A stretch of 63,895 bases of DNA, the filler included, from Folioceros fuciformis (taxonomy: Eukaryota): assembly GCA_049999805.1 (NCBI GenBank). It is 20 parts of 20 records of this genome, joined end to end, with 100 filler letters (N's around TTAATTAATTAA, not from the genome) between each part and the next. Parts side by side here need not be neighbours in the genome. Positions count along the whole stretch, not along the records: positions 29,779 to 43,226 come from JBNGIO010002409.1; 19 more parts are not named here. One strand, given 5' to 3'. The notes below the pieces were generated by a model. The model did no database searches. It was not told the DNA's origin and was given only the letters and a program-made list of their open reading frames with translations. The translations under genes and the position numbers were made by a program. How positions within the stretch are numbered: position 1 is the stretch's first letter; every line of letters starts with the position of its first letter. Positions 4,700 to 62,685 of this stretch are shown in pieces.

Positions 4700-4829
4700 G
4701 CAGTCAAGCGCTCTTAATTGGGAGCGGCATCAAGTCCAAGAAAGCATCTTCAGCAGATCTTAACTAAATATTATTTTAAGACGCAATGAATTCTGGCCTA
4801 TCTTATCACCGTGCTTGTCTCCTATCTGT

Positions 4830-7270: not shown

Positions 7271-8375
7271 CAACATTTGAACTTAACCCTAGACATCTCC
7301 AGACATACATATATATTCTATATATTTAGCATGCATTCATGTATATATGGGGTGACCAGCCCCTATATGATATACGCGTATATTCTTGCAACAGTGCACA
7401 TGGATGCCTCCCCTTGAGTGCTTTCTCCCCATCGTGCACACCAAGCCTACTGGTCATCCTACCACTCTTTGGTGGTTTACTACACACGAGATCGACGAAA
7501 GGAGTAGATGTCCTCTACTCCTCCTCCCTCGATGTGAGTTCAGTGATCACGCTTATATTTCTTGGATGCCTCCCCTTGGGTGCTTCCTCCCCATTGTGCA
7601 TGCCAAGGCTACTGGTCATCCTACCACCCTTTGGTGGTTAACTGCACATGAGATCGACGAAAGGAATAGCTGTCATCTACTCCTCCTCCCTCGCTGCGAC
7701 ACCTTCACAACAAGTTTTAAGATGTTAGTCTGATGATGCTCCGTGTCACTCCATCACAACGCTTTCTTATGCAATACCATTTACAAACGTTATTTAATGA
7801 CACAGAATCTTTGATTCAATTGTTCAATTCGCTACAAGCTTTTCGATTACAATTGCACATTGAAGACACTTAGTGCATTCCTGCTTCTCAAGCTTTCTAA
7901 GCGAACTATCAAAAGAATGTTTGATCATTCTTTCCTCATCCCTATATACCTACACCATTTCGTTACCAACCACCTAGACGTTCATTCCTAAACTGTTATC
8001 AATTATCCACAAAGCAAACCACCAAGAACCACACTCTCCAGCCGAACGGTTCCTTCGTGAGAACTTTTGCTTGCCAACTGTCTTTTTAGTCAAAACGTAA
8101 GGGATTTACCCTATCTGCAAGCGTATTTATCTTAAGTAAATAGCTTACGCAGTCACGACCTGCACAAAAAGTTCTCATAGATGCCAAACTCTAATAGACT
8201 TTCTAAGTCATGATAGCTCCCTGCCCGCCAAGTTCGCTCCTTGACGCCGCTCCCGTTGTGGTTGTGCTCCACTTTGAAAATACCCCGGGACACTTGGGTC
8301 CCTACTTAGGGTTTCCATTCGTCCGTGATGCTTTGGGTTCCACTACCACTCCTGGATCTCCACTACCTATTGCTC

Positions 8376-8475
8376 NNNNNNNNNNNNNNNNNNNNNNNNN
8401 NNNNNNNNNNNNNNNNNNNTTAATTAATTAANNNNNNNNNNNNNNNNNNNNNNNNNNNNNNNNNNNNNNNNNNNN
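8376..8475. other. Artificial contig spacer N44-TTAATTAATTAA-N44 (first of 19)
   Basis: Identical 100-bp spacers start at 8376, 11821, 13908, 27258, 29679, 43227, 44574, 45784, 46962, 48158, 51564, 52850, 54412, 55690, 57463, 59044, 60302, 61471 and 62586. The 12-mer has stops in all six frames. Confidence 0.98.
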
Positions 8476-29778: not shown

Positions 29779-30897
29779 TGAGCATCTTGTGCACGCAATT
29801 CCGCATCCAAAGTGCTATGCCTCCAACAATTGCGTATAGTATGAGGACTCACAGATGAAATCTAAGCTTTTACCAGCATAACCACTGCTTGATATACATC
29901 GATAGTTGTAGCCGCATTGTCTATGATCTGGTTGCATTGGTACGAAATCATCAACTTACAATATTGAGCCTTGAAAGAACAGATGATCCCTTGGTCCAAA
30001 GGTTGATATATGCTTGTCACATTGGGTGGAAAGAAAACCACCTTTGTAACTTGTAATTGAGCTGCATTACCAAATCAATGCCCAGGACAGTTATCCACTA
30101 TAAGTAACACTCTAGTCCGCCCTGATGCAACCATCCTTTGGTCAAAATCTAGCAAAAACTTCCCAAACAGCTCTATTGTCATCCATGCTTTTTGGTTTAC
30201 ATACCATATAATATTCAAATTCTCGGGATCCATCAACATTTGTTGTCAGTCCAATTGTCAACCGATCCTTAAACTGCTTCCGTCCTGCAATACGCATTGT
30301 TGTAGGTGTCCTGTTCGGCGATGCTCTGAAGAAAAGACCAGTCTCATCCATATTAAAAACATTTGCAGCTCCATAATCAAGAACTTGAAGTTGCAGCTCT
30401 CTAATATCTGCCTTCACTGCTTCTGTATTGTCAACACTCCCTGCCTCTCTATGTCTAACAACTAATTTAAAATTTTACCTTTCCTTCTAGTGAGCAACCC
30501 AAACTCTATGGTATGTCATTTTTGGTCTCTCATCTTTAGGAATCTTCTCGTAGAATTTGGAAGCCATCTCATGAAGCAAGTCATCTGAAATTGTGGCACC
30601 TTGAGCTTGGATTGCAAGAGCCTAAACGTGTACTGTGTGGTCAACCTGTGGGCATTCAACTGGTCTATTCCTCATTCGTGCCATATTAGTTGTTGGACCA
30701 ATGGCAGGGTCCAACCATTTGTCTTAATTTTTCACAATCCTAGACAATGCACTTTTATAAGCTGCTATTGAAAACTTCTCTGTTGTCCGTCTAGTCAACT
30801 TCTTAAGTGTGCAAGATTGTTGGACATAATATTCGCAAACCTCTTTCTTTTGTTGCTTCGTTAGGGTAGCATGCTTGCGCGGCGGCTTGGACTGCAT
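29779..30897 (-). pseudogene. pogo/CENP-B-like DDE_1 transposase, disrupted
   Basis: MQSKPPRKHATLTKQQKKEVC (HTH-like), GATISDDLL, RHREAGSVD, VFNMDETGLFF, KDRLTIGLTTNVDGS, LLIVDNCPGH, FFPPNVTSIYQPLDQGIICSFKAQY. Confidence 0.92.
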
Positions 30898-31393
30898 TAT
30901 TCCTACACATCAAAGAATGGGTAAGGAACACATACAAAATATCTCACAGCAAGACAACAACTTACAACACCATAACATAACTTACAACACCATAACACAA
31001 CTTACAACATCATAAGACAACTTGTACAATGAAACAACTTATGTACTAGGAACAATGCTTTTGATCACAAAGCATAGTGTACAGAACTACTACATATATA
31101 GGCTCAATCTCGATCACTGTCTATGTTTTATGATATAATCTCGAAGGCCTTTAACTTGACATAATCTTAATAACTCATAATAAGATAATTTCTTCATTTT
31201 TTTTGTTTTTTTTCAATATGTATTTTCCCTTTTACAGAGGTGTACTTACATTGAATGTTTGGGAGACATGTTCCCATTTAAAAATTAGAGGGGTTTCCCA
31301 TTTAGCATGTAGCACATTCAAGGGAGTAAGCTCGGGCGTTCCATTTAAAGGGGGTTCCCATTTATAGGGGTCCCAATTAGAGGGGTCTGACTG
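29779..31393 (-). mobile_element. pogo/Tigger-like (Tc1/mariner superfamily) DNA transposon, 5' part
   Basis: Minus-strand terminus CAGTCAGACCCCTCTAATTGGGA at 31393 flanked by TA. Subterminal TCCCATTTA-like repeats at 31270-31385. Contains a transposase pseudogene. Runs into a gap. Confidence 0.85.
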
Positions 31394-31880
31394 TATATGG
31401 AGGCGACCGCAATCTCTTCCAAATACACACCAAGACACAAGGTTGATAGCAATCCCTGGAGCGTGTTCTCTATGGATTGTGCACGCTTACAAAAACGTTT
31501 GTGTAGGTCTGTCATTAAACACCTCTTTCAAATCATCTGCCAAAAAATTGCTTTTGTCTATGCATGGCTCTTAAAAACAATGGCATGCTACAAACTATTA
31601 AGCGCAAAGTTGCTAGGGCATAGGGAGGTCATCATACAATTACTACTCTTGCACAACCTTTGTTAATTGTTCCATCTCCTGGAAAACAATGTAAAGAGCA
31701 CGTTATGTTGGGGAATATCTTTGCTTCCATATTTTACATTTCTCACTTTCATGTTGTTCCAAGTATCCTGCAATGATTCTAGTTTTACTCGTATTGTTTG
31801 CATAAATGTTACATGAAGAGAGTGCACATTTTATAGATTTGTGACATCCAATTCCTTCCTCTCCTCCAATTCTAGCTTAT

Positions 31881-34800
31881 TGTAAGTCCTAAATTCGGCA
31901 AGGTAGTAACGACGAAGGAGGTTGTCAGAGGGGAAGGATGGCAAGTATAGTATCTAAACGGCGTGAGCTTACATACTTTCGACGGAGGATTGGAGAAAGA
32001 AGTAAATGGGGGGAGGTTGGGAGGCAGCGAATATGGACACGGTATGAAGAGACAAGAGGAGGCAAACTGGGGAAGATGACACAATTCGGGAGTAGGACCG
32101 ACGCCTGCTCCGAGTCCTGCCGTGCAACAACTATCAAAGAGGAGAGGGAAGGTGGAGGGGGAAGGTAGCCCTGATACAAGCCGCTGACGAAGCTCCTAGA
32201 ACTTAATGCGCTAAAGACTTACTGTTGATGGTCTGCCGAACTGGTCGTTGTACCTAAAGGCTACTGTGTGCATTCCCCGAACGTCATGGTCCTTCTTTGT
32301 TCCTAGGGTGGAGTGTCCTTGTCTAGACGTACTCCGTCAAAACGCGAACGAGGTGTCCTAAGTGGGGCAAAGGAAGTCCAGAGCAGCAGACTGTCTGTGG
32401 ACTACGAGGAGATAGGAAAGGAAAAGAAAGGGTAGAGCGCAGCAGACAGGAAGAGATGAGGACTCTAAGGCCCTTGTAAGATTAGAAGGTCAAGCATTTA
32501 TACAAAACTGGGCTTCAAGTCCGGACAATAGCCATAAATACAACAAAAGATCCTAAGTCCTATTCTAAGTGCCTAGCAGTCTGGTTCTGCTAGGCACTAA
32601 GGGGCCAGCTAACGGTTGTCACCTTGACTTAATGAGAAGGCGGCGGTGTCGGCTGAGTGGTGCAAGGGGAGGACGGCGCCGGAGGGGATCCAGTGGGCGA
32701 GGCGGGTTTGTAAGGAGATTCTGCTCTGACGATTGCGATAGGCAGATCAGCGGAGCCAGCATGAGGGGACCGGACCAATAACTGGAGGTCCGGGGAAGCG
32801 GGTTCAGCTTCCTGGGTCTGGTTTTCTCCCGGGGCTTCATTGAGCTACTTCTCCAAAGCGGCAGTCCACTCCGCAGCTTGAGTTCTTAGCCCTTCTAGCT
32901 CCTGCTGGCACTTGTCCTGTTCCTCCTGGTATTTACTGGACTCCTCCTGAAGCTCAGAGGTATGTCCAACTGGTCGTTCTTTGAGGGCAAACGACTGAGT
33001 TGCCAACTTAGTCATCTTTCTCCTCCGGGCAACGTTTTTGCTCTCTCTGGCTCCTACTTGTCCGAAGGCCTAGGCTAGCCCCTTCGCCACACTTGTGACA
33101 ATGCCTTGGGTTGCTTGGGTGGCTCCTTCCGCCGTGGGTTCGGTGTAGAACCAGTAGTTGGGAGGCAATTGTGCTCTCCCAAAGGACGTCTAAATAGCCC
33201 TTCTCATGGCTTTTGGGTCCGTAATACCTCTGTTAATGAGGTCTTCAAGGACTATGGACCATGGCAATGCCTTGCAATGGTCGACCTCCTCCTAAACAAG
33301 GTTGGGAGCCGATATGAGGGTCGGAGTTGGGATCACTATGGTGGGTGGCGGGCTAGGAGAGGGGTTCTTCCTTCCATGGGGTGAGGGTGGTCATTTGACT
33401 CTGGACGGCCCAATCTCGTGCCGTTCGTTGTAGTCCGATTGCGCCACCAGCTGGACTAGTTCCATACGATCTACCTCTTCCCTAGTCCTGGGTGCTCTCC
33501 TTGTTCCTGATACTGGAGCCAAGAAGTCCTACGGTTGTGAACTGGTGGGTGGCGGGGCACTTCGCAGCAGGAGCCGTTTTCTCATCGTAGTCATGGCTCT
33601 GATATTTCGCCACTTGGGCGAAGGTGCCTAGGCCGGTGGCGCTCCTGCTTTCTCCTTCGGAGGCGGGCTAGTCAGGGGGTTGGGGGCACAGACCATGGGC
33701 GACGGCTCTAGTGCTACTCCAAGGCTATACTCCCAAGGGTCTGAAATCGATAGCCGTACTGGCATAGTAGGGAGAGCCTTGGGCTATGTGGCCAGCGCCA
33801 AATCTTCTTCCTGGGGGTCGATGGAGGAGCGACGGAGGAGGTGCCTAGGTGAACGACAACCAAGAACGCGATGCCTTCTCGAAATCCGTTAGGACTTTAT
33901 AGTGGTCCCAGATGTGAAAAAGGAAAGGGAAGAGGCATGAGGCATGTGGCTTCTCATGCCTGAGTTTCCTAACATCGTACCAGATTTGATGTGCCATTAC
34001 CTTTCCCTAATCCACTAAGGTCCCTTGTGACAACCCGTAAAGGAGTAACAAAACTCCATCTGCTACATGGTTGGTTTTCGTCACCGGAAGCCAGGTGACA
34101 ATTTAGTGGGCCACACCCCTGATCCTCAAGTCCGGGATGTCATGAATCAACCACCCGTTGGTGACCTTGGTGGAATCCTCGGTTAAGAGCGCGGCTACCA
34201 CCTCCTAAACCAACTCCTTATTGTGCTGGGAGTTGAGTTAGGGTCAGTGGCGTTCTTCTGCCGAACGCTGATATACTTCTCGCATCATTTGGACAATCCA
34301 CAACATGGGGTTGTCCCTAATCTTGAAGGATGTGGGCTTGCCTAAAGCGCACTACAGCATGGTCCGGGCAAGTTCTCGGACAATCGCCGTCGAGTTGATA
34401 ACCCAGGGGAACTGGAAAATCCCTAACTCCCGCCACTACTATCCAAGGCGCAAAATTGGGATATGAGCCCGTCTGGATTTGCTCAACATTGAGTCTCCAA
34501 GTGTTGCCGACTTCAAGGAACTGTCATGATGCCATGGCAAAGGAGTCTTGCGGGCTGAAAACGGGAGGTAGGTAGTAGAGGGCGACAACGCACCAGGTTC
34601 CTCGAGGGGGAAGAAGGAATACCAAGGACAGGAAGGAAGCTAGAAGGTCGTAAGGCACTGGCAGACGAAGTGGAGCAGTAGGAGAACGGAGTAGAAGAAG
34701 AAAGTCGGAATGAGTCTTAGTAGAGATGGCAAGAGGGAGAGGGAGTGGAGTGGAGTGTATCGGCTGGTGTATGCTAGCATAAAGTCTTATGCTCGGCGGC

Positions 34801-35061
34801 TCAAGTACATCAGCAACCGTCCGAGATGGTTACGCCTCGCCTTCTACATGATGTCAAGTACTAGATCTTGTACGGATCGTCATGTATTGGCAATCCGTTC
34901 GTCCAATGACCATTTGGAGGTCTGGCATGCCTTCTACTTCGAAGAACTTGGGGTTGCCAAAGGTAACCGTTTGTTAAAACAAACAAATTTTCCACTTACT
35001 CCGGAAGCAAGTCCGATGGGTCACCGAAGTACTATTTCGACGATTATTTTTGGACCTCACA
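31881..35061 (-). mobile_element. 3181-bp TG..CA element with 5-bp TSD CTTAT; probable solo LTR (family E) containing an ORF
   Basis: CTTAT at 31876-31880 and 35062-35066. Termini TGTAAGTCC / GGACCTCACA. No internal LTR pair, PBS or gag-pol seen. The element is GC-richer than its AT-rich flanks. Orientation is inferred from the ORF and TATA. Confidence 0.85.
32570..34535 (-). pseudogene. Decayed accessory ORF inside element E, homologous to 4830-7270 and 47062-48157
   Basis: Hand translation: YPNFAPW..ELGIF..IRDNPMLWIVQMMREVY..NGWLIHDIPDLRIRGVAH*..KTNHVADGVLLLL..VD*GKVM..SCLFPFLFHI, then Pro/Ser-rich and coiled-coil segments. The 3' end is approximate. Confidence 0.75.
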
Positions 35062-35293
35062 CTTATAACACTTGAATAGAAATCCCCACTTATGGAGTGA
35101 GTACTACAAATGCTTTATTTGATGTTTTTCCACATACATACTACCATTTGTCAATTTGGGATTTCTTCTTTTATGCTCATCATTCAAACACACCCACTTG
35201 ATTCTTCACAAAATGATAGCCTACTATGTTTTGCATAGAAGTCTCTTAGACCAAGCTACTACCTTATTCATGTGGTTAACATGTGCTGCTACC

Positions 35294-35446
35294 TTATTCA
35301 TGTGGCTTTGCTGCCTCGCTATTCCCATGGCTCACTCATATCCTATTCATGTGGCTTTGCTGCCTTGCTATTCCCATGGCTCACTCATTATCTATTCATA
35401 TGGCTTTGCTGACTCCCTATTCCCATGGTTCACTCCTGACCTATTC
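35294..35446. repeat. Tandem repeat, 3 x 49 bp
   Basis: TATTCATGTGGCTTTGCTGCC..CTATTCCCATGGCTCACTC at 35295, 35344 and 35393. Confidence 0.9.
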
Positions 35447-37472
35447 TTGTTGCTGCCCTATGGTCATGTCTTCCTTTCTCATATTGTGTTTTGCGTAAAA
35501 TCTAAGTGTAGCTTGAAAGATTGTCCATTATCTAACCGCCTAGACATTATGAGTCGGTCTCATTTGTTGTCCTCCAACACATACCAAGTCATATAGTAAT
35601 CATGCATCTTCCCCCAATGAGCACATTCATCCATGACAAATTTATGTTTGATCTACCTAAACTCTTTATGTTTGATCTACCTAAACTCTTGTGTCTTATG
35701 GCATTTACCATCCAATTTTCTTGTAAGCACTAAACTTGCATTGCCTTTGCTTTAGGATACATAGCATGTCCATCTAAGTTCTAGCATGTTCGAAATAGTT
35801 TTGGCCTCAACCAAGTTCTATAATTTCTAGTTTCATATTGCCCTCAACGAGATAAGATTTGCCATACTTAGAATTCCCATTGTCGCTACTATACCCTCCT
35901 TTGCATGGAACACAAGTTCAAACACACAAGCATTTGTCTTAGAAAAAGACTTTAGGCACAATATGGACACTTTATCTCCTTTTTATATACAAAGAGTGAA
36001 TCTATACATCAAAATATTTAGAATTTTATCTAGGTTTTTTTTACTAGGGATGCCTAGAAGGAGAATTTCTTCTACTATATGCTATCTAGTTCAAATTGCA
36101 TGGAGGCTATATGTATATATAGCAACTTAGATAGTCATGTTATCACGAAGTTTAAGTGGTCTTGCTTGTTACTTAAAAGTGAACATGATGAAAGTTCATT
36201 TCAACACATTCTTTCTCACCTGGATGTGGATACTAAGCAAGTTTGGCTACACACATTCACCAAAGAGGGGAAGGTGGGTTTACGAGGGGGTAGGCCATAG
36301 CCCTATGACCTTCTTCCTTGCCCTAAGGGACCTATGGGGGTTTTAGGAGAGGGATAGGGCACCGCCTCTATAGCCTTATTTCTTGCCATTTAGAGGCCTT
36401 TTTCAACCTTGTACAGTATCCATTTCTTGCCTTTTCTACACTCTATGGGCTGCACGAGGTCATGGAGTCTTTTCTTTTGTGCCTTTCCCAATATGCACTA
36501 GCCGCAAGGGAGGGCAAGCCTCCTTTTCTTATCATGTGATAGGGGTGAGAGAGAAGCACGAAGGCGTGCATGTCGACACCCCCTATGCCCCTTCCCCTTT
36601 CCCGTTGGTACACCTATTAACAAATAACAACCTATGTCCTCTACCATACCTATATATTTTGGACCCTATGGAAGGATGTGGCTATTGTAGGATGTGACTA
36701 TTGTAATTGTTATCTACCGGATACAAATATGGTTTTCTATTAGCATCAAAGGACCTAAGATCTTTTTGTAGCAATATATCTACTTGTCTTTCCGTTTTCA
36801 TCAAAGGAACACCTTCAAAAAAACTATTTGACATTCTTTTCCAATCACAAACATTTATTTCTAGCTTGTATTGGTAAGAGAGGCAGCGTCAGCAATTCCA
36901 GCGGTATGTAAACCCTTTCTTCTCCCATACTAGGATGTTTTAGGTGCTATTTGTAGTCATTAGGTTTAAGGGGGTTAACTCTAGTGTCATTAGGCTTTAG
37001 GGTTTAACTCATGGTCTATCTCTCTCTCTCTAGGGGTAGATAGGTTTTTTTATCTTGTTTTTCTAAAATAAATAAATAAAATTTATTGTGTTAAATACAA
37101 AAAACTTGGACATAGGTTTTCGAAGGGGGCTTTATACATGCAAGCCTTTCAAAGTTTGAGGTTATAATAACCTCAAATGCTCTCCTACCTATCCTCATTC
37201 CCTATGTTGGGTTTTTCCTCCCCCCACTCCCATATGCACATTTGCCTCCTCATTGTCTTTCTTATCCTTAGCCCCTCACTCTTGCTTTCCTAATCCTCAA
37301 CTTCTTACTTCTGCTCCTCCGCACCTTCTCCTTCATGGTCCATTCTCGTCCCTCACTATCTTCCTCGTCCTCATCCTCTTGCTTCTTCGCACCTTCTCCT
37401 TCAAAGACCATAATCTAGTCCTACTCCTCCACACCGTCTCCTTCGTAGTTCATATCCTAGTCCTTGTCGCAA

Positions 37473-37693
37473 TGAACATTTTGATGTCTAACATGAAACT
37501 CTAACCTAGGCCTAGTCCTCGTCGTGAGTGAATGTGTTGATGGCTAACATGAAATTCTACCGAGGTGTGTGAACATGTTGATGAGTAACATGAAACTCTA
37601 ACGAGGTGAGTGAACATGTTAATGGCTAACATGAAATTCTAACGAGGTGTTTGAACATGTTGATGGGTAACATGAAACTCTAACTAGGTGTGT
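37473..37693. repeat. Tandem repeat, ~5 x 41 bp
   Basis: TGAACATGTTGATGGNTAACATGAAA(C/T)TCTAACGAGGTG at 37529, 37570, 37611 and 37652, plus a related copy at 37473. Confidence 0.9.
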
Positions 37694-38776
37694 GCGAAAA
37701 ATTTCTTCACCATGTGTGCGTCAAGGATTCCAAGGTGTGCAGCGATTGCTAAAATAAGTATTTTCACCATTGGGGATAGAAAGATTACAAATATAGGTAT
37801 AGCCAAGTGTTCTAACTGACATGGACAAAAAGATTTTATGTCTAGTAAGATTTTTTCTATCTAATTTTTTTAATCTAATCTCTTGCTCACTTTTTATATG
37901 CAATAAAAGAGCATTTATACATGGAGGAGGGCGAGGTTTCTATGACACACGAAGGATATGCATATCCAAGATGTAACATACAACAGAAAAAGATGACCTA
38001 GATGACCTTAAGTGCGCGATGAGGTTCCATCACGTAGCTCTGCTCAGAGTTCCGATTACACAAGTGTTTGTTACCTGCTGGTAGGTCAGGTACCGACTCC
38101 TGCCCACGGACGTGCAGCTGCACATACCGTTACAAGACATAGTTATGTAGAAACTACAGTAAAGTGGAAAGCGAAGTGCCACAAGCCCCCCGTTTTTCCC
38201 CTTACAGAGGAAATACAAAAGGTGCAGGGCGAAGTATCCACCATGACTGGCACGATGTTTCAGTTTGTGCTGTTGCAATATCGTCCATTCCTGCTCTCAA
38301 ACAATATGTCCACTTACCTCTAATGGCACATTTAGGCTTATCGTCCACACCGTCTATACACATGGACACCATCAGCCAGGCCAAGTTTTCAGGGCTGGTG
38401 CTACTCCAGAATATGGTACTCGCGAAATCGCAAGCAATAAACTAGATACCAGCAATCTACAAGGGCGCTCTTACTGGCAACACATAACCAACCCAACCTA
38501 GCTCCGATCTGCCTCCTTTCCATACCCCAACTGCATAGTGGGTTGGAGGCCTTGCAGAGTGGGGCGACAAGGGTAGATGAACCACCACCACCAAGGGCCT
38601 GGGCTCGCCACGATGACAGACCTCACCTGGTTGTTCTACATCACCCAAGTGCAACCTCACCCCCCGCCCCCCACCAATGCTAATTGGCACCAGCTAGGGG
38701 AGCTGCTGCATATCCTTACCGCATGTGGAACACTGGCCATCTGTCTGCGACAGTGACATCGCACACTGCGTCCAGC

Positions 38777-41700
38777 TCACGCTCGGGGACGGTTGCATAT
38801 AGTGCATACTGTGGCTGCCGTTCCGTTGGCGTAAGTGCAGTGCTCGCAAGACCAATGTGCAGTCTCATCCCCACTTCGGCTGGTACCGCTGCCTTTCGAG
38901 GACCCCACTCTATTCTTGCCTCCTCTTCCCTTTGAACTACCTGAGGCTTTTGAGCTACTGCAACACTTGTTGTTCACGCTCTTCGAATTGTCCACGTCAG
39001 CAAGCCCGTTCTCCAATGCCCGGACTAGGTTTTCAAAATACGTTCTAGTAACGCTGCATTGCCAAACCACCAGTTATTGTCAATCCAGGCAAATCAAAAC
39101 CAGTCCCCACAGCAACTCACAAAACTCACAAAACTCACAAACTCACAAAACCATTCAGTCATGCCTGGTTAAGCCAGCTAGCTTCGTGCGAAACTCATTG
39201 AAGTTGCTCTGTGGGGCATCTCCCTCGAGAAAGGACTGCAAGTCCTTTTCAGCACACTGATGTAACCGTTCTAGCCCTCCTTCAGCCTCCCCTGCATCCC
39301 TCATAAGCCAGCCATGAGAAGCCACCCACTTTGATCCAAGTAAACCCAACTCGAGAAGCATAGCATAGACCTCAGATATACTGAATACTAATCAGCACTG
39401 TTGCTCACCTTGTAAGTACTCAAAAAACTGCCTCTTAGCTTGCTCGTGTTCTGGCAGATAATACCCATAGGCATACGTCCATTTCAAAACTCTTCGACAC
39501 TCAACAATCTGCATATAAGTGAGTCCTCACCGGAATCAGGCTTGCCACTAGAAAAGCATGATGAATCACAAAGAGACAGTTCTCCATGATGTATGGACCA
39601 AAGGCCACTGTCTTAGTAAATCAACATCTAACGCAATCGCTTATCACTCACCAACTCCAACCTGCAATCTCCAGCCCAGATAAACAAAAAGACAAATCAA
39701 TCAGCATTACACTCAACCCTACTGACTGCTGCCTTTCATTCCCCATGCCTGTGCAAGAAGTCTATGAAACACACCCACGGGGCGGCATAGTCCAAACTGT
39801 TGGGCCTACCTGCAACCAGGCCTCAGGAACAAACTTGAGTTGTGACACGGGTTGGCATTGCTTGTCACTCAGTTTCTCAATCTGCAATTCGACATAGAAA
39901 GTGAGCAGCAAGACAATAACATGGGAAAACAGTATCCCCAACAAAGACTTCCGCAATCAAATGCAAAGACTTGGGGTAAGCATAAAATGCAAGCGTGTAC
40001 CTGAACGGCCTGCATTTGCTGAAGGTCGTGGAGAGCCTTTGCCCTTGACTGCACAGTAAATGTCAAATATGATTATACATATCCTTCAACTTCAATAGAT
40101 GACAAATCTGCGCAAGAAGAAACTCAACTGATTCATTTGTTGCCCATCGCTCATAATAATGAGTGTAGCGCTCCAATGAATTTTTGGCCATTTCCCTCCT
40201 CCTTTCAGCTTCATCATACTGCACCAGTAGTACAAGTCAAAGCCAATTCTAACTCCCGAGCATGCTTCATGCTAAACATGAAAAGGTGAGATCAGGCTAC
40301 ACACCACGCCTTCTTGTTTAGCAGTTTCGTATCGATTGCATGCATAAAAGCCACCGGTCCTCTCATTATGATCAGCCCAGGCACCAAGGCACAGCCTGCA
40401 AAGAAGTACACCCGGTTACAATGGCCAGAAGGTGACATAATATCCGAGGTGTCTCCATTTCACAAACTTGGAAAGTGTCGCAATACTCTTCCAGCCAGCT
40501 GTGTTCCAAGAATGTCTGAAGGATTCGGGTATTGCAGAGTCCAGGGCTCCAAAAACTCACCAGCAAAACTCAAATTTACAAGGTGGAGTGCAGGTGATGT
40601 GCATGCAGCCTTGATTTTTCTCGATTGGGCGCTTGCACTTTGGGCAAGGTTTTGAATTCGCCAGAATCCTACCATAATTCAGATGACAACAGATCTCAGG
40701 TTCTAGGAAAGTCCAAATCCAAACAGACTGTGTGAAATGAGGACACACCCTCTGTATGAATGAGCACAAAACAAATATCCAAGCTTAGCTCCAGTCAAAG
40801 CTAGGACTAAAGAATCCACTGAGAACAACCAACGTACCAGTTCATGTTCTCAGATTCAGCACTGTTTTTGAGAATCCACTTTGCAACTGTCTCACAATCT
40901 ACAGGCCGATGCGCCTCCTCCAGGCACTAAAAGATAAAAATCAGACAGTTTAGGGCCAAAACCAAAGAAAGTCTACACTGATAATCGTACTAATTTATAA
41001 GATCATATTCAAGGCGTTGGCTGACAGCTGATAAAAAAAACTCACGTTCCAGCAAAAGTTGTGGCCGCACTTGCAAACAATATCAAAAGAACCACTGCCA
41101 GGAACAAATTCAACCGCATATTCACAGCCAGGTGCAGGGCACCACTTTGCCTGAGAATCAAGCAATACAAAATAAAATTCTCGGAAGGGGAAAACAAGGC
41201 AGATATTTCAAGTTGACAATACAAGAGCACTCCTCTATAGTACCTTTCTGTTGTCTTCAACGTATGACCTCAGAAGGTATCGCATGTATTTTATCTTGTC
41301 TTCCTGTAAAACTAGCGACAAAACCATGTCTTCACCAACAGCAGCACCACAAGCGGGATCTGCACATCGAAGCGTGAGGCAGCCTGGCCCATCATTGATT
41401 GCCGTATGGATGTACCCTGCACAAATACACCCACGAAAGCAAATAAGCCATCTACCAAGCCAGCTCTGACAGGCCCTCGTACTAAAGGATCACACGTCCT
41501 GACGTCAGTCAAGAGAATAAAAAACGCAGCAAAATCTGTTCTCTCCAGATTCAATCGAAAAAAAAAATCGTGTATGTCAACAGGGCTACAGTTCCACCCA
41601 CGGACCTGTCCAGCATACATCACAGAAATAATGATTACAGGCTGGTGCTTTCATTTTCTCGATTGGTTGCGTTTCGAAGCAGATTCCACAAGTGAGCTGC

Positions 41701-42554
41701 AAACACAGTGCCAGAAAATGAGAATAAGAGTCGTGTTTCCATCACATTCAATACGAGTCAATATGAGGAGCAGTAAGAGGCTTTCTATGGCAACCAAAAG
41801 GAGAGTACCTCTTTGAAAGCCTGTCGTTTCTCTGTCTTTCTCTCCAGAAGGCCAACAGTAGACCGGACTCCCTCCTCGTCCGCAAACCACTCGTCATTCA
41901 CTCTACTAACACTCCTGCATCCAAAGTCGGTAAGCCAAAGTAGTACCAAACGGAGACTCAGTATTCCATGGAAAAGAGAAACAATCACGACTGTCAGAAA
42001 CACATGCATGAGTGCGAAGACAACTTGAAAGCTGGTGGTACGTGACAAAGCAGAAACATCATACCACTTGAAGTGGCGGAGAAGAATGCCAGCTTCCGTG
42101 TCGCACACCGAGAGGACCTGTGCAACGTTTTCAACAGCTTCCCCTTGTCGCTGCCGTATATCCCTTTCACTTAAGATGGTGTAATTGGACTGCAAACCAA
42201 GAGGCAAAAACAAGGTGAGCTAGACTGAGGCAGCACGAATGACGAGAGATCGAGGGGCAACAGCAGGGCGTCCACACCACATTAAAGCAACCGGCCTTAA
42301 CACAGGAGACAAGGCATGAATTGGGCAAGCAAACAATCTGAATCGGTTGCCTCTGAGACGAACAAACTTAGTACCTGGGGAAGCCTGGAGCTAGGGTGCA
42401 GGTCATCGGCTGCACTTTCATCAAATCCGTAGTCCGACTCATCATCCTCGTCTGTCGGCATTCGATCACTCTCGTCATCGTCCTCGTTCTTGTCATAATA
42501 GTCCCCATCAGACGTGCCACCCCATGCATCATGCATATCATCCTCCGAATCCAT
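38777..42554 (-). CDS. ARI8: ARIADNE-family RBR E3 ubiquitin ligase (ARI7/ARI8-like), 15 coding exons, 593 aa
   Basis: Exons 42375-42554, 42065-42189, 41809-41914, 41606-41696, 41244-41416, 41046-41150, 40838-40926, 40561-40668, 40305-40395, 40129-40218, 40001-40048, 39810-39881, 39409-39508, 39165-39291 and 38777-39053 total 1782 nt with consistent phases. Acidic N-terminus, RING1 ([15 protein letters not shown]), IBR (KWCPAPGC), RING2 ([19 protein letters not shown]), Ariadne domain and C-terminal RanBP2 finger ([10 protein letters not shown]...CTIC). Exact orthology is not established. Confidence 0.96.
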
Positions 42555-43326
42555 TGTCTAGGGGCAGGGAATTGCACAGGACGATATGAACCACAAAGAG
42601 AAAGAGAGGCTCAACTTCAGGCCGGGAAAGCGAAGGATTTAAGCAGGGTAAGGTAATTGGCAAGAGGACGCCTCGGCGCCGGGGCAGGCAAATCCAATTG
42701 AGGCTACGTGATGGGAGCAATCCTGCGGGATTGGGGCGTACATGCGGGAGCTACAAATGGCAGAATGATCCCCGTATGCGTGGCAGCGCAACAATTCACA
42801 AGTGGTACAAGGGAAACACCTTGGCGTCGCGTTGCATCTTGGCAAATTCAGGGCAAACGGCGAGATGTGGCTGCCCGCCGGCCTGCCCCGGTCTAGTCTG
42901 CAGTGGGGATACAGTGGAAGCAGAGACGAGGACGAGGCAAAGGAAAAAGGCGATGGAAAGCAAAAGACCCGGGGACGCGAAAGCGATTAGCGGACAACCG
43001 ACATAGATCAGTCGCCCATCCCTAGACTACACCACCAATGTTCCTCCTGCTCCTTCTCGGCTCTCTTCTGCTCTGCTATGCTCTCCTCTCCTGCTCACCG
43101 TGGGTGTCCACCGCAGCTCATCAGGGCTGGGACCGAGACACCCAGCGAAAAGACAAAGTGCTTACATGCTTTGTCATCGGCATGCCATGCACCCCATCCA
43201 CATGTGCAAACCCTTACCCCCTCGACNNNNNNNNNNNNNNNNNNNNNNNNNNNNNNNNNNNNNNNNNNNNTTAATTAATTAANNNNNNNNNNNNNNNNNN
43301 NNNNNNNNNNNNNNNNNNNNNNNNNN

Positions 43327-47061: not shown

Positions 47062-48157
47062 ACCTACTAAGCCGATTCGCCTGTCCCTTCACAAAAAAAA
47101 TCACAACCTGCTCATTCCGTCGCTCAAAATGGGGGTTCCGAAAGTTTTTTTCGTTCACAGTTCAGGAGCAGCTCCCTGCTTCTCTTCAACCCGCTCCGGG
47201 ATTGCCTCCTTCGACGCTGACCCGCTCCCTTTCTTGACAATCTGGCCTCTGGCCCGTCTCCACTTGACGAGGGTCCTTTTCCCTGACCCTGCCTTCCTCT
47301 TTTGCCTGGCGGGAGTCCCTTCCTCTGAGCTATCCGCACCGCCCGACTCCCAGCTGCTGGAGTCGGCCCCTACTGGTTCGGAGGGCTTCCACTTCACATC
47401 CCTTATCGGCCTCCACATATGCATCGAGGCTAGCACTTCCAGTTCGGTCATGAGGTTAGCATAACAGTCGATGTGGATTAGAAAGGGAGAAATCATTGAG
47501 GGCCAAGAAAAGGACAGAGTTAGATTCTGCCTCTCCTCGTCCATCCTAGCGTACAAGATTTTTCCCTAGTCCACCTTGCTCCCCTTGACTACCTCATGCA
47601 CAAATAGGAGCATCAAGTCGGACAAATGATCCTGCTTGCGAACTTGCAGGAAACACAGGAACCACTTGGCCAGACCCATTAGCTGAGGGTTGGCCATATC
47701 GCGAACCAGCCACCCATCGGCTCCCTTCTTGGTGCCTGGTTTGAGTAGCTCCTCGGCGTTTGTTGTGCCACCCTGTTTCTTCAAAGACTCCAGCACCAGT
47801 CCTCCCTCCTCCTGCTGATCTCGGCCAAACACCCGCGTTACCATCTCCAAGTTCCACTCCTGGGGTCTGCCGCGGATTCCCTCTTCTCGAACGGGCTCTC
47901 TCATCTTCAGGGCGCACTCCTTGACCAATTGCAGCACCGCATGGTTCCACCTCTCGGTCATGAACCCGAGGCCTAGTTCTCCAACCAGTCCTCCGGCTCT
48001 AACCCTCCAGTGCTCCATATTGGGCCACAGGAGCACATTGATCTTTGGTACAGGGGATTCTCCTTCCTGCTCAGGTACCGTTACTCTTGGCAGCAACTCT
48101 GGTCGTGACCTCATCCTGCCTGATTCTTCCCCGTACTCCGAACCCTGCTGCCCTCCT
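47062..48157 (-). pseudogene. Best-preserved copy of the retroelement accessory ORF
   Basis: ORFs 47566-48114 and 47155-47556 are in frame and separated by a single TAG at the conserved Trp (VD*GKILY). Confidence 0.8.
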
Positions 48158-48257: not shown

Positions 48258-48697
48258 TGAGCATTTCTGGATGGGAGACCCGGCTAATGGGTTTGCGGCC
48301 ATGGGGGTGGTGTATCATGCCGTTCGCGATCCGATTTTTTTTTCCCATCATCCCAATGTTGACAGGATCTGGAACGTCTGGATGGTAGGAATGTTAACGT
48401 TGCAAGGAATGGAAGCATGGACCCTCCCATATGAGACAGTCTGACTGACTGGTGTTGTACATTTTTCAGGGACTCGAGGGCAGGCGCAACTATGATGACC
48501 CCGACTTCCTGGACGCTGCCTTCTACTTCTACGACGAGAATGCGGAGATTGTGAGGGTCACTGTTGCCGAGTGTCTCGGCTCTGACCTCCTGAGTTACAC
48601 CTTCCAAGACGTGGAGAACGAGTGGGTGGCCTACGACGCATCAGCCGATTCAGCCCTTTTCCTCGACGGTCCATCTCCAGCACGTTCCCAAGCATGA
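48258..48697 (+). CDS. PPO: Polyphenol oxidase, 3' part (CuB site and PPO1_DWL-like region), two exons, 5'-truncated by gap
   Basis: Exon to 48384: HFWMGDP...MGVVYHAVRDPIFFSHHPNVDRIWNVW. GT-AG phase-0 intron 48385-48469. Exon 48470-48697: DPDFLDAAFYFYDENAEIVRVTVAECL..LSYTFQDVENEW, stop at 48695-48697. Confidence 0.9.
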
Positions 48698-51451
48698 TGA
48701 CTGGGTCACCATGCTTGAATCGACAGATTCGAGCCTTGATGTCCACAGCCCATGAACACAACGACGTTGCCGTTCCCGAGCGTGAATGTCTACAGACACA
48801 CTGACTTCTATGCCTACTGATTGGGTACGGCAAATTTCTGTGCCTCAGCCGTGATAACACAGCATGCTTCACAGCAATTATTGTGCACATCTTCTCTGGC
48901 GGTGGAGTGGACGTCCCAACTGGTGCCACTGGAGGACGGTCACCCTTACTTCTTGCCCTTTCTTGCTGGCATTGCACGTGAAATGTGAAACAAGCATGAC
49001 CCCACATCGTTCTGTTGGGTCTATTCAGAACTTGCTTCTGAAGCCAGAAACTGCAGGCTGACAACAACATAAACAGCTCGAATCATTGACAGACAGTACA
49101 AGTACTAGCGGAGGAGAAGGACTAGTACTGCCAGGGCTAGGCCCTATGCCTGCAGGCACTGGATGGCCGGTGAACTTAGAAAGTATCCACAAATTAGACG
49201 CAGAGAGAGTGCACTTGCTCCACCTCCTTTCCGCTGACGAAGAAAGACTCGGCCAGGAGCTCCGCTTTAGTTCCTGACCCGTACAGCAAGAGGGGCATGA
49301 GCTGGATGCCCGGGTTCTAGCCCTTGAGCACGTTCAGACTTACGGCCTGCGATATGCCCACGTTGTCGGGGCATCTTTTGCACTCCCATCAAACGTGGTG
49401 GTCTTGATTTTGCGTTGGAGTTCCTTGTCCAGGTGTGGCTTCGGTTTGAAAGCCTGTTCTTCTCTGGACCATCAGGTGAGCTAGTCCGGGCCGTCCCTCT
49501 CTGGTTTTCCCGATTCTCATAGCGCATAAGCTGCACACGTCTGACCAGGTCTTTAATCTCCTTGTTGTCCTTATCGCCTGGTCCGAGTTCGTCAGGAGTG
49601 TCTTCAGCTCTCGTCCTCCACACTGGGCTCCCGGCCTACTGTCAGGTGCTTTCATACTGCTGTTACGGGGCCCCCGAAGTGTCATGAGCTGAATGCCGGG
49701 TGCCTTCTGCAGAGCCCGCTGGTTTGGGAGACGTCGGAGGTGGTGGGGACTGGTGAGCGCCTGGGGGTGCTGACTGCTCCAGGGCTTGGAGCGCACCCCC
49801 CAGCTGCCTGTTCCGGAGGGTCGGACCTGGTCCTCTCCCAGCTGGGTGTCGGCGATGAGCGTGGACGCTTGGATCATCAATCCAGTCTCAAACATTTGCA
49901 TGCAACAGCAGCAACTTGACGGCACTGCGGGATCGCGGTGAGCAACGGGTTCTTACAACAAGAGGCGACAATTTTTAATGGGTCGCGAATTCGCGGACAC
50001 CCCTACAGTCAGGTAACAGCTACATCGCAGATTTGCCAGCGAAGCCATTTGCCAACGCAGGGTTTAGGGTGAGTCCCGAGCTTGGCTGGAATTCAAACGG
50101 TTTGGGCGCGACACTCCCTTACCTTAGGTTTCTTGCAACGGAAGGAGTAGAGTGAAAAGGAGCGCTCAGCGCGCGCGCCAAGGACTGGCGGGACAGCACA
50201 TGATCGCGATGGCTGAGCAGGTATCGGGAGACCCAAACAGCGGGAGTTGAGACAGCGAGGGAGCGGGCAGGTCTGCCGCTTCACGATTTAGGGTCGTTGG
50301 ATGCGAGAGCAGATTTCTTGACGGCCGCGGCTGCCCAAAATTCGATCCACATGGAAGGGCTGGCGGGATTTCAGGTTGATACATCTCCTGCTGCCGTTAC
50401 CGAGTGATGCTGGCCTGATGCCCGACATTGGCCACCAGCTGTATAGCCTAGTTTCCTTCCAACGAATTCAAAGTTTTTTTGTCATGGAATCAGGTGGTCC
50501 AAGTTGAGGAGGCTGAAAGCTGTCGACCCGAGTCGAGCTAACATTACCGTTCAAAAAGACAGGAGGGGGATGATAAAAGATGGAAGGTGTAACGAAGGTA
50601 AAATTATCGGATGAAGAGTCTAAAGGTTCGATAAAGGATGTACACCTTAACAATTGAGTGTGCCTGTCTACCGACACACTTTGTATTAATAATTGAGTGC
50701 TCTGGTAGACTAACACACCCTCTTTATATTTATGCATTGTTTTAATATCTATTTAGTTTTGAAATAACATTAATTAAATAGATATGGGAAATAGTGTGGT
50801 GGTTAGAGTCCTGTTTAAAGTATGAAAGGTTTTGAGTTGGATGAAAATATATTCAAAAATTTATTTTCAATCCCATCTATGAAAACTTTTGCAAGGTACT
50901 TACTTTTAATCCAACCATAAACTTTCATTCTCAATATAGTTACTTTCAACCCATTTCATGAAATCTTTCTCAAAATACTTACTTTCAATCCATTATTTGA
51001 ATGTTTCTCAAAATATTTCTTTCAACCAAGTTTATGAAATCTTTCTCAAAATACTTACTTTTAACTTAGTCTAGAGAAAGATACTTACTTTCAATTGTAA
51101 TCTTAATTATGTAACCTTTTTTTATGTAATTGGTAGACTGGTGCACATAGACTGTTGCATGCGTCGACTGGTGCATTTGAACTGCAAGAGTGCAGCAATA
51201 GATTGGCGCACCTTGGAGTATCTTGCTGCTGTCTTTTCCACATCAAGCTGTTTGTTTCCTTATGACATTGATGTAATAGACGCTTATATGGTTAACTACA
51301 AAAACTTTGAGACACTTCAAAGTCGTAGATTTAGAATCAAAACCTAAAGAACTTGTGTTTGTGCAAGAGGGCAATATGATATGAGTGAACTTGTATGGTG
51401 GTTTTTAGAAATGACGTCCATTTGTGGCTAAATATTGAACACATTAAGTGT

Positions 51452-62036: not shown

Positions 62037-62685
62037 TTCTTCTAGAGGGTATATAAACCCCCTTGAGCTCCCTTGCAATGTGAGACTTTGTGTGAGAGTG
62101 TGACCTCTCTTTCTCCTCCTTGTTGCCTCCTCCTCTCCTCCTTCACCATGCAGCTCCTTTAGTGGTCCTTCATCGTCTGGTCACAACATCGACAGAGATG
62201 GACACTGACCTGCACCACCCGCTGGTGAAGAGGCTACTCCCATTTGCCCAGACCGCCGGAGGAAGGAAGGATAACTCAGGTGGGAGCGTGAGAGCATCCA
62301 ATTCAAAAGCAAGCAAAGGACCTCTGAACCCCATTACGCTGACTGTGAATCACGGAGGCAGTACAAGAGGCAGTCAGAATTACAACATTCCGAATGCCTA
62401 CAACTTTGTAGAGCGATTGAGACTGAAGAAGTTAGAAGACACTCTGGCCAAAAGATTCAACACTGATAAGGAATGGTTTTTGATAGCTGAAGATGAGCCT
62501 GATGACTTGAACTTGCCGTGGATTCCTCTTATTGCTCTGTGGGTGAATGGGTTTCAAGGTTTGGCGGAGGACGAAGCAGGAAGGGNNNNNNNNNNNNNNN
62601 NNNNNNNNNNNNNNNNNNNNNNNNNNNNNTTAATTAATTAANNNNNNNNNNNNNNNNNNNNNNNNNNNNNNNNNNNNNNNNNNNN

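Follow-up and report, generated by a model that had tools for sequence, protein, structure and literature searches.

The window analysed here, the whole stretch of 63,895 nucleotides, consists of about 20 unplaced contigs joined by N44-TTAATTAATTAA-N44 linkers, and the sequence of interest is an inserted unit of 3181 bp at 31881-35061, the GC content of which is 0.54 against approximately 0.35-0.40 in the flanks. The unit begins with TG at 31881-2 and ends with CA at 35060-1, and it is bracketed by a left copy of CTTAT (31876-31880) that is identical to the right copy at 35062-35066. The termini, TGTAAGTCC.. and ..GGACCTCACA, form an imperfect inverted repeat, where the left terminus TGTAAGTCCTAAATT (31881-31895, plus strand) and the reverse complement of the right terminus ..TTTTTGGACCTCACA (35047-35061, plus strand) align with 11 matched columns, 3 mismatches and two one-base gaps. 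The TG..CA ends, the short imperfect inverted repeat and the perfect 5-bp target-site duplication (TSD) had been claimed in an earlier sequence-only reading, and all of them were confirmed by reading the sequence directly. Within the window, neither the left terminus nor the right terminus (21 bases) occurs again at up to three mismatches, and a second copy of the unit was not found.

Such ends alone are not beyond chance, because the window contains 1,684 TG..CA pairs with a 5-bp duplication at a spacing of 1-6 kb. Only the pair at 31881-35061 is both among the top 25 by inverted-repeat score, where it ranks 25th of 1,684, and among the top 9 by GC contrast. Composition change-points were located independently using a first-order Markov model at 31896 (range 31851-31914) and 35043 (range 34969-35047), which are 15 and 18 bp from the unit termini, respectively. 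The position of the termini within about 20 bp of both change-points indicates that 31881-35061 is a discrete insertion; it is a single, integrase-mediated event that carries the end signature of an LTR-type integrase. If, instead, the boundaries had arisen by chance, the GC-rich block would be either part of a larger repeat or a pseudogene left stranded. The number of candidate pairs in the window is in keeping with such an origin, as are the fragmentary assembly in this region and the finding that an equally good inverted-repeat bracket surrounds 7.5% of random anchors. However, both ends lie less than 20 bp from independent change-points, the expected number of chance TG..CA/TSD pairs with ends no more than 30 bp to either side of two fixed points is only about 0.01 (60 × 60 × 3.8e-6), and the block holds exactly one ORF of the length of the family described below, together with its flanks. 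Chance boundaries are thus regarded as quite unlikely.

An integrase-core-like relic matching PF24764 (E 1e-4, below the cut-off) adjoins the left CTTAT. For the upstream part of this relic, the match of which is itself below the cut-off, no counterpart was detectable to the right of the insertion.

The content of the unit was characterized by self-comparison and by Pfam searches in all six read-through frames. No internal or terminal direct repeats exceeded those in shuffled sequences, and none of the six frames gave a match to gag, pol or any other Pfam domain, which bears out the earlier statement that the unit contains neither an internal LTR pair nor gag-pol and is as expected of a solo LTR. 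The unit gave no tRNA or Rfam match, and the window contains no tRNA gene.

On its minus strand, the unit encloses what looks like a whole but dead copy of a protein-coding gene family, which is referred to as copy A. The relic extends for about 620 codons from an ATG at 34489 to a TAA at 32631-32629 and consists of two parts. The first part (33878-34489, minus strand, frame P0002), identified by tblastn and three-base periodicity, starts at this ATG and corresponds to an N-terminal domain of about 200 codons. The second part (32629-33663, minus strand, frame P0003), identified by periodicity and with 8 stops in 345 codons, includes a Pro-rich stretch, a coiled-coil-like segment at about 32842-32958 and the terminal TAA. 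The change of frame from P0002 to P0003 occurs somewhere in about 33.7-33.5 kb. In the best reading, copy A is interrupted by 20 in-frame stops (12 belong to the first frame and 8 to the second, counted over two stretches that overlap) as well as by one or more frameshifts, and the density of the stops is not below chance (12 against a shuffle mean of 13.8 and 8 against 12.6). With these lesions, copy A provides no open, expressible ORF inside the unit, and the description of the locus as a self-contained gene finds no support for this copy.

Evidence of past coding was obtained from composition. The three-base periodicity is significant in both halves of copy A (p 4e-4 and 9e-5, the latter for the P0003 part with a chi2 of 28.1) and reaches p 5e-5 at 34461-34012, whereas it is absent from the flanks and from the 748-bp non-coding tail of the unit (31881-32628, minus strand; chi2 1.6, p 0.96). 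In the P0003 part, G makes up 0.35 of the bases at first codon positions and 0.16 at second positions, and this frame is the best phase according to a copia-trained model; the same two minus frames were picked by two phase measures. The 1-kb windows of the unit rank 31-39 of 252, and the higher-ranked windows, as far as they were checked, coincide with stretches that have transposon Pfam domains. Pfam searches of the P0003 part gave coiled-coil-type noise only, and among 11 single ORF fragments such noise appeared in one and nothing else was found. For the C-terminal half of copy A, the comparison with the C-terminal parts of a second copy of the family, copy B, was also not significant. This half, being devoid of detected homology, is therefore identified by the statistics and by its matching length and architecture. 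AlphaFold2 models had a pLDDT of 38.0 for P0002 and 37.8 for alignment A1, which is too poor for fold searching.

The sequence-only reading had placed a decayed ORF of about 2 kb on the minus strand with its start at ATG 34535. The strand holds, since a gene relic does exist there, but the relic lies in two other frames, and neither this ATG nor its frame could be retained. The frame terminates right after M-A-S and contains 23 stops over 638 codons, where dinucleotide shuffles average 24.1 and 46% of them have 23 or fewer, and it is the worst of the three minus frames by codon-position composition. With chance-level stops, no Pfam match and no word-index relatives, it was rejected as a coding frame.

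Two other copies of the family are present in the window, both on the minus strand. Copy B (5314-7105) consists of the domain, a linker and a 178-aa coiled-coil ORF, with frameshifts. Copy C (47155-48156), which occupies its own 1.1-kb contig, comprises 333 codons with one internal stop, and its 5' side is cut by a linker. Using tblastn, the region 34321-33878 of copy A matches 47877-47437(-) of copy C with 28% identity over 148 aa (E 6e-13), and copy A matches 6962-6450(-) of copy B in three pieces (E 0.004). The match to copies B and C is frame-specific, with an E value of 6e-13 in one frame and 0.01 at best in the other five, and no match between copy A and either of them exists at the DNA level. 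Between copies B and C, pN is 0.257 and pS is 0.765, and the identities at the first, second and third codon positions are 0.65, 0.77 and 0.47, respectively; the corresponding values between copies A and C are 0.46, 0.59 and 0.28. The fact that most differences between copies B and C are at third codon positions indicates that the family evolved as a protein, so that both marks of a real gene, frame-specific homology among diverged copies and an excess of third-position change, are present. The protein family evolved under purifying selection, which indicates that the gene was a functional part of a mobile-element lineage and not noise or a randomly captured scrap. Copies A and B are also alike in length, about 620 and 597 codons, and in layout, beginning with the domain and ending with the coiled coil.

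Copy C has a gypsy RT on one side and a polyphenol oxidase fragment on the other, from which the usual place of the ORF might have been deduced. Because linkers separate copy C from both, they belong to separate contigs, and this line of reasoning was dropped.

Searches for relatives outside the window returned no named family. Among the models of accessory ORFs, copy A matches PF20167 best, with an E value of 0.14 and 12.4 bits against a cut-off of 45. This model is linked to the 3' ORFs of Athila in PMC11728184. The match is probably noise, since PF20167 is not matched, at E values up to 0.5, by copies B and C, which are better preserved; nor do they match PF04195 or PF03078 within that limit, and the latter two models have no match in copy A. 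The search for homologous proteins with P0001 and P0002 yielded no relatives, phmmer with P0002 gave 0 matches at E<=1e-3 among 1.84 billion representative proteins, the PDB searched by sequence gave nothing at E<0.89, and the best score of copy C in the ESM Atlas was 0.82, which is below the lead level. These negative results in protein databases carry little weight because the source species is absent and because a control, the copia gag ORF of the window, reached no more than 64% identity in the related protein database, where the named matches were mostly from Adiantum. No copies were found in the metagenome, viral and prokaryote-genome collections, where the control likewise has none. The protein family thus has no Pfam family and no database relatives found, and it is previously unnamed.

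The surroundings of copy B bear on the nature of the unit. A candidate unit of 3,324 bp around it, at 4615-7938, has TG..CA ends, a TSD of TCCCT and a short inverted repeat. An equally good bracket is found around 7.5% of 400 random 1.8-kb anchors, and the bracket of copy B therefore adds little support. The unit of copy A and that of copy B do not resemble each other at their termini (p 0.08 and 0.49); on their contigs, neither copy has gag or pol next to it. Terminal direct repeats beyond shuffles are found in neither unit, and a reading in which short decayed LTRs flank each of them was rejected on this ground.

The two units could represent complete non-autonomous elements of an undescribed kind that are not LTRs, each carrying a single accessory gene with flanks of about 600-750 bp and being mobilized in trans by a DDE integrase, either of the LTR type or Ginger-like, which would account for the TG..CA ends and the 5-bp duplications. 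Copies A and B, the two of two with enough flank, are both found within TSD-bracketed units of 3.2-3.3 kb that have a single full-length ORF and neither gag nor pol in the vicinity, and the purifying selection on the gene family also agrees with an element of this type. On the other hand, the ORF has no transposase or integrase domain, and the bracket of copy B is weak. Furthermore, we know of no mechanism by which a unit that lacks terminal direct repeats or long inverted repeats would be reverse-transcribed or excised, and the inverted repeat of the present unit spans no more than about 10 bp. A non-autonomous element of this kind is considered unlikely.

The features around the relic were examined on the minus strand. 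Upstream of the ORF, a pyrimidine-rich stretch, which had been described as a leader, is present as a CT-rich region at about 34560-34760 with plus-strand purine runs at 34604-34619, 34693-34704 and 34731-34745. Downstream, TATAAAT is found at 32496-32502 (ATTTATA on the plus strand), 127 nt after the ORF stop, and about 620 bp remain from this motif to the end of the unit. The only minus-strand occurrences of TATAAA in the unit are at 33901 and 32502. The motif is followed by a CT-rich tract at about 32400-32460, corresponding to a plus-strand purine run at 32414-32432. The stretch, the motif and the tract had all been noted previously and were found as described. A perfect 11-bp hairpin, GTGCCTAGCAG / CTGCTAGGCAC with a 7-nt loop, is located at 32569-32597, 32-60 nt past the ORF stop, and is covered by an inverted self-match. 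No polyadenylation signal, AATAAA or ATTAAA, exists on either strand of the unit, and on the minus strand of the unit a purine run reaches a length of 12 or more only at 33015-33026.

These features should be considered together with the usual location of such genes. Accessory ORFs of plant LTR retrotransposons are common and unexplained, and reviews describe them in the internal region, between the LTRs and normally between pol and the 3' LTR (PMC7264820, PMC11963269), a placement that counts against a gene embedded in an LTR. The unit could, consistent with this placement, be a deletion derivative of an LTR retrotransposon such as Athila, Tat or Retand with an internal accessory ORF, where illegitimate recombination would have deleted gag and pol along with most of the 5' LTR; what is left of the 5' LTR would be a few bases, and the ORF region and a short 3' LTR would also remain. 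The TATAAAT motif and the following 620 bp could be this short 3' LTR. However, no part of the 5' end of the unit is repeated downstream of the ORF, and a purine tract followed by TG is not found on the minus strand between the ORF stop and the TATA motif. The same accident would also have been needed in copy B, if the bracket of copy B is real. A deletion derivative is judged to be quite unlikely.

The explanation that is preferred, with a probability of roughly 0.5, is that the unit represents a solo LTR from a family with long LTRs and that the dead accessory gene is embedded in it. The unit would have been left in this fern-like genome by LTR-LTR recombination of a Ty3/gypsy-type retrotransposon with LTRs of about 3.2 kb, and the accessory gene on the minus strand would encode a helical N-terminal domain of about 200 aa, a Pro-rich middle and a short coiled coil. 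An accessory ORF between pol and the 3' LTR may become part of U3 if plus-strand priming shifts to a purine tract upstream of it, and the route of the gene into U3 could then be the same as that of nef and sag in retroviruses. We infer both the identity of the unit as an LTR and this route of the gene into it. The orientation and the U3 placement are plausible, with the TATAAAT motif 127 nt after the stop and then about 620 bp to the end of the unit. In the open-access literature that was searched, no plant LTR with an embedded protein ORF was found. A wider claim, which is put forward tentatively as a doubtful possibility, is that a fern Ty3/gypsy-type lineage keeps a gene of about 600 aa, with a helical N-terminal domain and a coiled coil and belonging to no known family, in its 3.2-kb LTR, under purifying selection across lineages with a protein identity as low as 28%; each full element would then carry two copies, and each solo LTR would deposit a complete gene together with its flanks.

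Retroviral accessory genes encoded in U3 are known from MMTV (sag) and HIV (the overlap of nef). Should the unit be an LTR that is read on the minus strand, its ORF, being upstream of the TATA box, would similarly lie in U3 and be present twice per provirus, although no retroviral homology was found and copy A is dead. The unit also resembles a plant LTR with a gene-derived module inside the repeat, where solo LTRs keep the module; that module, however, is a short RNA gene and not a 1.9-kb protein ORF, and the unit has no Rfam match.

LTRs longer than 3 kb exist in plants, as reported for Retrosat2 and FRetro3 (PMC3485330). By comparison of descriptions only, the unit is similar to these Tekay-type elements of rice in that their LTRs are about 3.2-3.3 kb in length with short terminal inverted repeats, and in that they have an extra ORF, ORF0, which evolves fast and has no relatives outside the family (PMC3485330). 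In contrast, ORF0 is internal and upstream of gag-pol, not in the LTR, and the Retrosat2 LTR has, in that account, a CTTTTT repeat run and three AATAAA signals (PMC3485330), none of which was seen in the unit. The gene is also comparable to the antisense ORFs of Tat/Retand (TRP28, PF04195) and the 3' ORFs of Athila (PF20167 / PF03078), which are described as lineage-restricted Ty3/gypsy accessory proteins of unknown function, some of them with SMC-like coiled coils (PMC11963269, PMC11728184, PMC7264820). Unlike the ORF of the unit, they are located between pol and the 3' LTR, and TRP28 is reported from flowering plants only.

If the preferred reading, a solo LTR with an embedded gene, is correct, a conserved gene inside an LTR would be doubled in dosage with two copies per element, and its expression would differ if it lies in U3, where only the 3' copy would be included in the genomic RNA. 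Solo LTRs are the commonest remains of LTR retrotransposons, and each of them would leave a whole gene behind. The arrangement would be a plant counterpart of the U3 genes of retroviruses, and new host genes could readily arise from it. To our knowledge, the mobile elements of ferns have been little studied, and whatever the outcome for the LTR, a new repeat-borne protein family under selection is present in a fern-like genome.

The alignment of the three copies also shows an in-frame TAG that is common to copies A and C at the same codon (34007-34009, minus strand, in copy A), where copy A reads GAT TAG GGA AAG, copy C reads GAC TAG GGA AAA and copy B reads GAT TGG CTG GGA AAA. In copy C, this TAG is the only stop in the 333 codons before the terminal stop.

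The two ends of the 3181-bp insertion at 31881-35061 (the unit) were found as the sequence-only reading had described them, with CTTAT and TGTAAGTCC at 31876-31889 on the left and GGACCTCACA and CTTAT at 35052-35066 on the right. This signature is weak by itself, as the window holds 1,684 TG..CA pairs that span 1-6 kb and are flanked by a 5-bp duplication. The unit's pair ranks 25 among them by terminal inverted repeat and 9 by GC contrast, and no other pair reaches both values. When the unit core and distant flanks were used to train a first-order Markov model, a change-point search put the shifts in composition at 31896 (31851-31914) and 35043 (34969-35047), that is, 15 and 18 bp away from the unit's termini. 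The insertion is established as real, and it is improbable that its boundaries are a product of chance.

An integrase-core-like relic at 31734-31872 on the minus strand adjoins the left duplication (PF24764 rva_4, E 1e-4, 22.6 bits against a cut-off of 26, profile positions 126-171 of 194); the upstream part expected for this relic was not detected to the right of the unit. The left-terminus motif TAAGTCCTA (31881-31896) recurs once inside the unit at 32555-32563 (within 32553-32570), in the stretch from the ORF stop to the TATA motif, and this recurrence of a 9-mer may be due to chance.

The unit consists of one whole gene in a dead copy (copy A), 572 bp upstream of it and 748 bp downstream, and nothing more. 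Its six read-through frames show no gag, pol or other Pfam domain, its sequence matches no RNA family or tRNA, and it contains no direct repeats beyond chance and no tandem arrays of note. The TATAAAT at 32502-32496 on the minus strand, followed by a CT-rich tract, was confirmed, and AATAAA is absent on both strands. A TG..CA insertion that has a 5-bp duplication and an inverted repeat of roughly 10 bp and lacks internal repeats is what a solo LTR typically looks like. The most likely reading is that the unit is a solo LTR, to which we assign a probability of about one half. It is considered unlikely that the unit is instead an independent element with a single gene that is mobilised in trans. 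No second copy of the unit occurs within the window, and no relatives were found in metagenome, viral and prokaryote-genome collections, where the copia gag used as a control also found none, which indicates that the repeats of this genome are absent from those collections altogether. LTRs of 3.2-3.3 kb are described for plants in PMC3485330.

The gene inside the unit is real but dead, and its frame differs from that proposed before. The decayed ORF of about 2 kb claimed to start from the ATG at 34535 ends after three codons (Met-Ala-Ser-stop). Its 638 codons include 23 stops, compared with 24.1 ± 4.4 in dinucleotide shuffles; this frame is without Pfam match or relatives, and for most of its extent its codon-position composition is the poorest of all the frames. 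Period-3 base composition was detected at 34546-33482 (chi2 24.6, p 4e-4) and 33663-32629 (chi2 28.1, p 9e-5), whereas it is absent from the last 748 bp of the unit (p 0.96) and from the flanks (p 0.13-0.83). By this periodicity the unit's windows rank 31-39 among 252 one-kb windows, and the higher-ranked ones that were checked overlap transposon Pfam stretches. Two phase measures, a model trained on the copia ORFs of the window and the general rule of a G-rich codon position 1 and a G-poor position 2, both gave one minus frame at about 34.6-33.7 kb and another at about 33.6-32.7 kb. The read-through translation of the first frame (P0002) begins at the ATG at 34489 and has 12 stops in 355 codons; that of the second (P0003), which contains a Pro-rich stretch and a short coiled-coil-like segment, ends with the TAA at 32629 and has 8 stops in 345 codons. 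Because these counts are not significantly lower than chance, copy A is thoroughly dead.

When the unit was translated in six frames and searched against the rest of the window, one strong and frame-specific match was obtained: 34321-33878, in the P0002 frame, aligned to 47877-47437 (minus) with E 6e-13 and 28% identity across 148 aa. No hit of the other five frames was better than E 0.01. A match in three pieces was also found at 6962-6450 (minus, E 0.004). The unit has no DNA-level similarity to either place. The former place belongs to copy C (47155-48156, minus), which occupies a separate 1.1-kb contig and is interrupted by a single stop only, and the latter to copy B (about 7105-5314, minus), which is frameshifted and shows the full layout of an N-terminal domain, a linker and a 178-aa coiled-coil ORF. 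A fourth scrap at 44453-44572 matches the linker of copy B (E 6e-5). Copies B and C share 63% DNA identity over aligned codons, 65% over a 777-bp BLASTN match and 49-59% at the protein level, with pN 0.257, pS 0.765 (saturated) and identities of 0.65, 0.77 and 0.47 by codon position; the corresponding values between A and C are 0.46, 0.59 and 0.28. Both patterns are typical of a selected protein, and the gene family is accordingly real. Copy A has the family length (about 620 codons, compared with about 597 in B) with its parts in the same order. Its C-terminal half has no significant similarity to B, so that the support there comes from periodicity and architecture only.

An in-frame TAG is located at the same aligned codon in A (34007-34009, minus) and C (47566-47568, minus), in the context GAT/GAC TAG GGA AAG/AAA, whereas B has TGG CTG; it is the sole internal stop of copy C. 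A conserved Trp codon may have decayed here by parallel G-to-A changes, or the TAG may be a read-through site. Its context resembles the UAG-G of MuLV gag-pol.

As to the identity of the protein, the sole Pfam hint in A was PF20167 (E 0.14), which was discounted because copies B and C match nothing at E up to 0.5. With P0002 as query, phmmer gave no hit at E ≤ 1e-3 among 1.84 billion representative proteins; in the related protein database, the window's own copia gag reaches only 64% identity at best. PDB sequence searches gave no useful match, and the ESM Atlas gave only sub-threshold clusters of plant 'hypothetical' proteins. The AlphaFold2 models, both helical over the domain, had pLDDT values of 38.0 and 37.8, which are too poor to use.

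Copy B, the sole other copy with enough flank, lies in a TG..CA bracket at 4615-7938 (3,324 bp) with a TCCCT duplication and an inverted repeat, TGGGAGCGAATCA / TGAGGAAAGAATGA, as good as that of the unit, and this makes 4615-7938 a candidate second unit. Among the four candidate brackets of copy B this one scores 5.0 and the others 1.0 or less; an equally good bracket was obtained at 7.5% of 400 random anchors, and a score as high in 0.8% of 3,758 chance candidates. This bracket gives modest, post hoc support to the solo-LTR reading. The likeness between the termini of A and B is not significant, and no gag or pol lies beside either copy on its own contig. It is rather unlikely that the unit is a deletion derivative.

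Read as an LTR on the minus strand, the unit would have its ORF upstream of TATAAAT and thus in U3. Accessory ORFs in plants usually lie between pol and the 3' LTR (PMC7264820, PMC11963269), and the former paper is a review whose passages on such ORFs name only internal positions. Such an ORF would join U3 once an upstream purine tract primes plus-strand synthesis; the progeny would then carry it in both LTRs, and LTR-LTR recombination could leave solo LTRs with the gene in each. Among the closest known systems, the orphan ORF0 of long-LTR Tekay elements is internal, whereas the ORF of the unit is inside the candidate LTR. The antisense TRP28 ORFs of Tat/Retand and the 3' ORFs of Athila are likewise internal and belong to other families, and Cassandra has an RNA gene within its LTRs. 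Retroviral U3 genes also belong to these systems. A search of a library of open-access papers turned up no plant LTR that carries a protein gene inside it.

The window consists of repeat DNA of plant character. Transposon domains occur in 10 of its 29 ORFs of at least 150 aa (copia gag, protease barrel, integrase, RT, PIF-type DDE and zinc knuckle). The copia gag ORF has 189 relatives in the protein database, the top ones being unnamed ENA records at 59-64% identity and the named ones mostly from Adiantum nelumboides, with others from Adiantum capillus-veneris, Ceratopteris and some seed plants, which points to a fern-like source in a database that lacks the species itself. The 19 linkers, from 8376-8475 to 62586-62685, each consist of 44 N, TTAATTAATTAA, a stop in all six frames, and 44 N. 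As they join about 20 small contigs, neighbours across them, such as the gypsy RT at 45.9-46.7 kb beside copy C, are meaningless.

On the contig bearing the unit (29779-43226), the minus strand at about 40.5-42.2 kb holds exons of an Ariadne-type RBR E3 ubiquitin ligase (IBR, E 3e-10 to 2e-8; UBA_ARI1, E 8e-7), which places the unit in a genic neighbourhood; a high-scoring TG..CA pair at 39429-42206, inside this gene, is probably due to chance. The same contig carries a Pogo/Tc5-like transposase relic at 29822-30610 on the minus strand, 1.3 kb from the unit (DDE_1, E 3e-26, about 29.8-30.2 kb; HTH_Tnp_Tc5, E 0.03), and a 49-bp tandem repeat at 35295-35454 (3.3 copies, 85% matches), 230 bp to the right of the unit. 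At 1-2124, the contig of copy B has low-complexity, very GC-rich sequence (GC 0.61-0.70) and, after it, a 40-bp tandem repeat in six copies (1805-2124). A polyphenol oxidase fragment is present at 48258-48700 on the plus strand of a small unplaced contig (Tyrosinase, E 5e-7; PPO1_DWL, E 6e-16).
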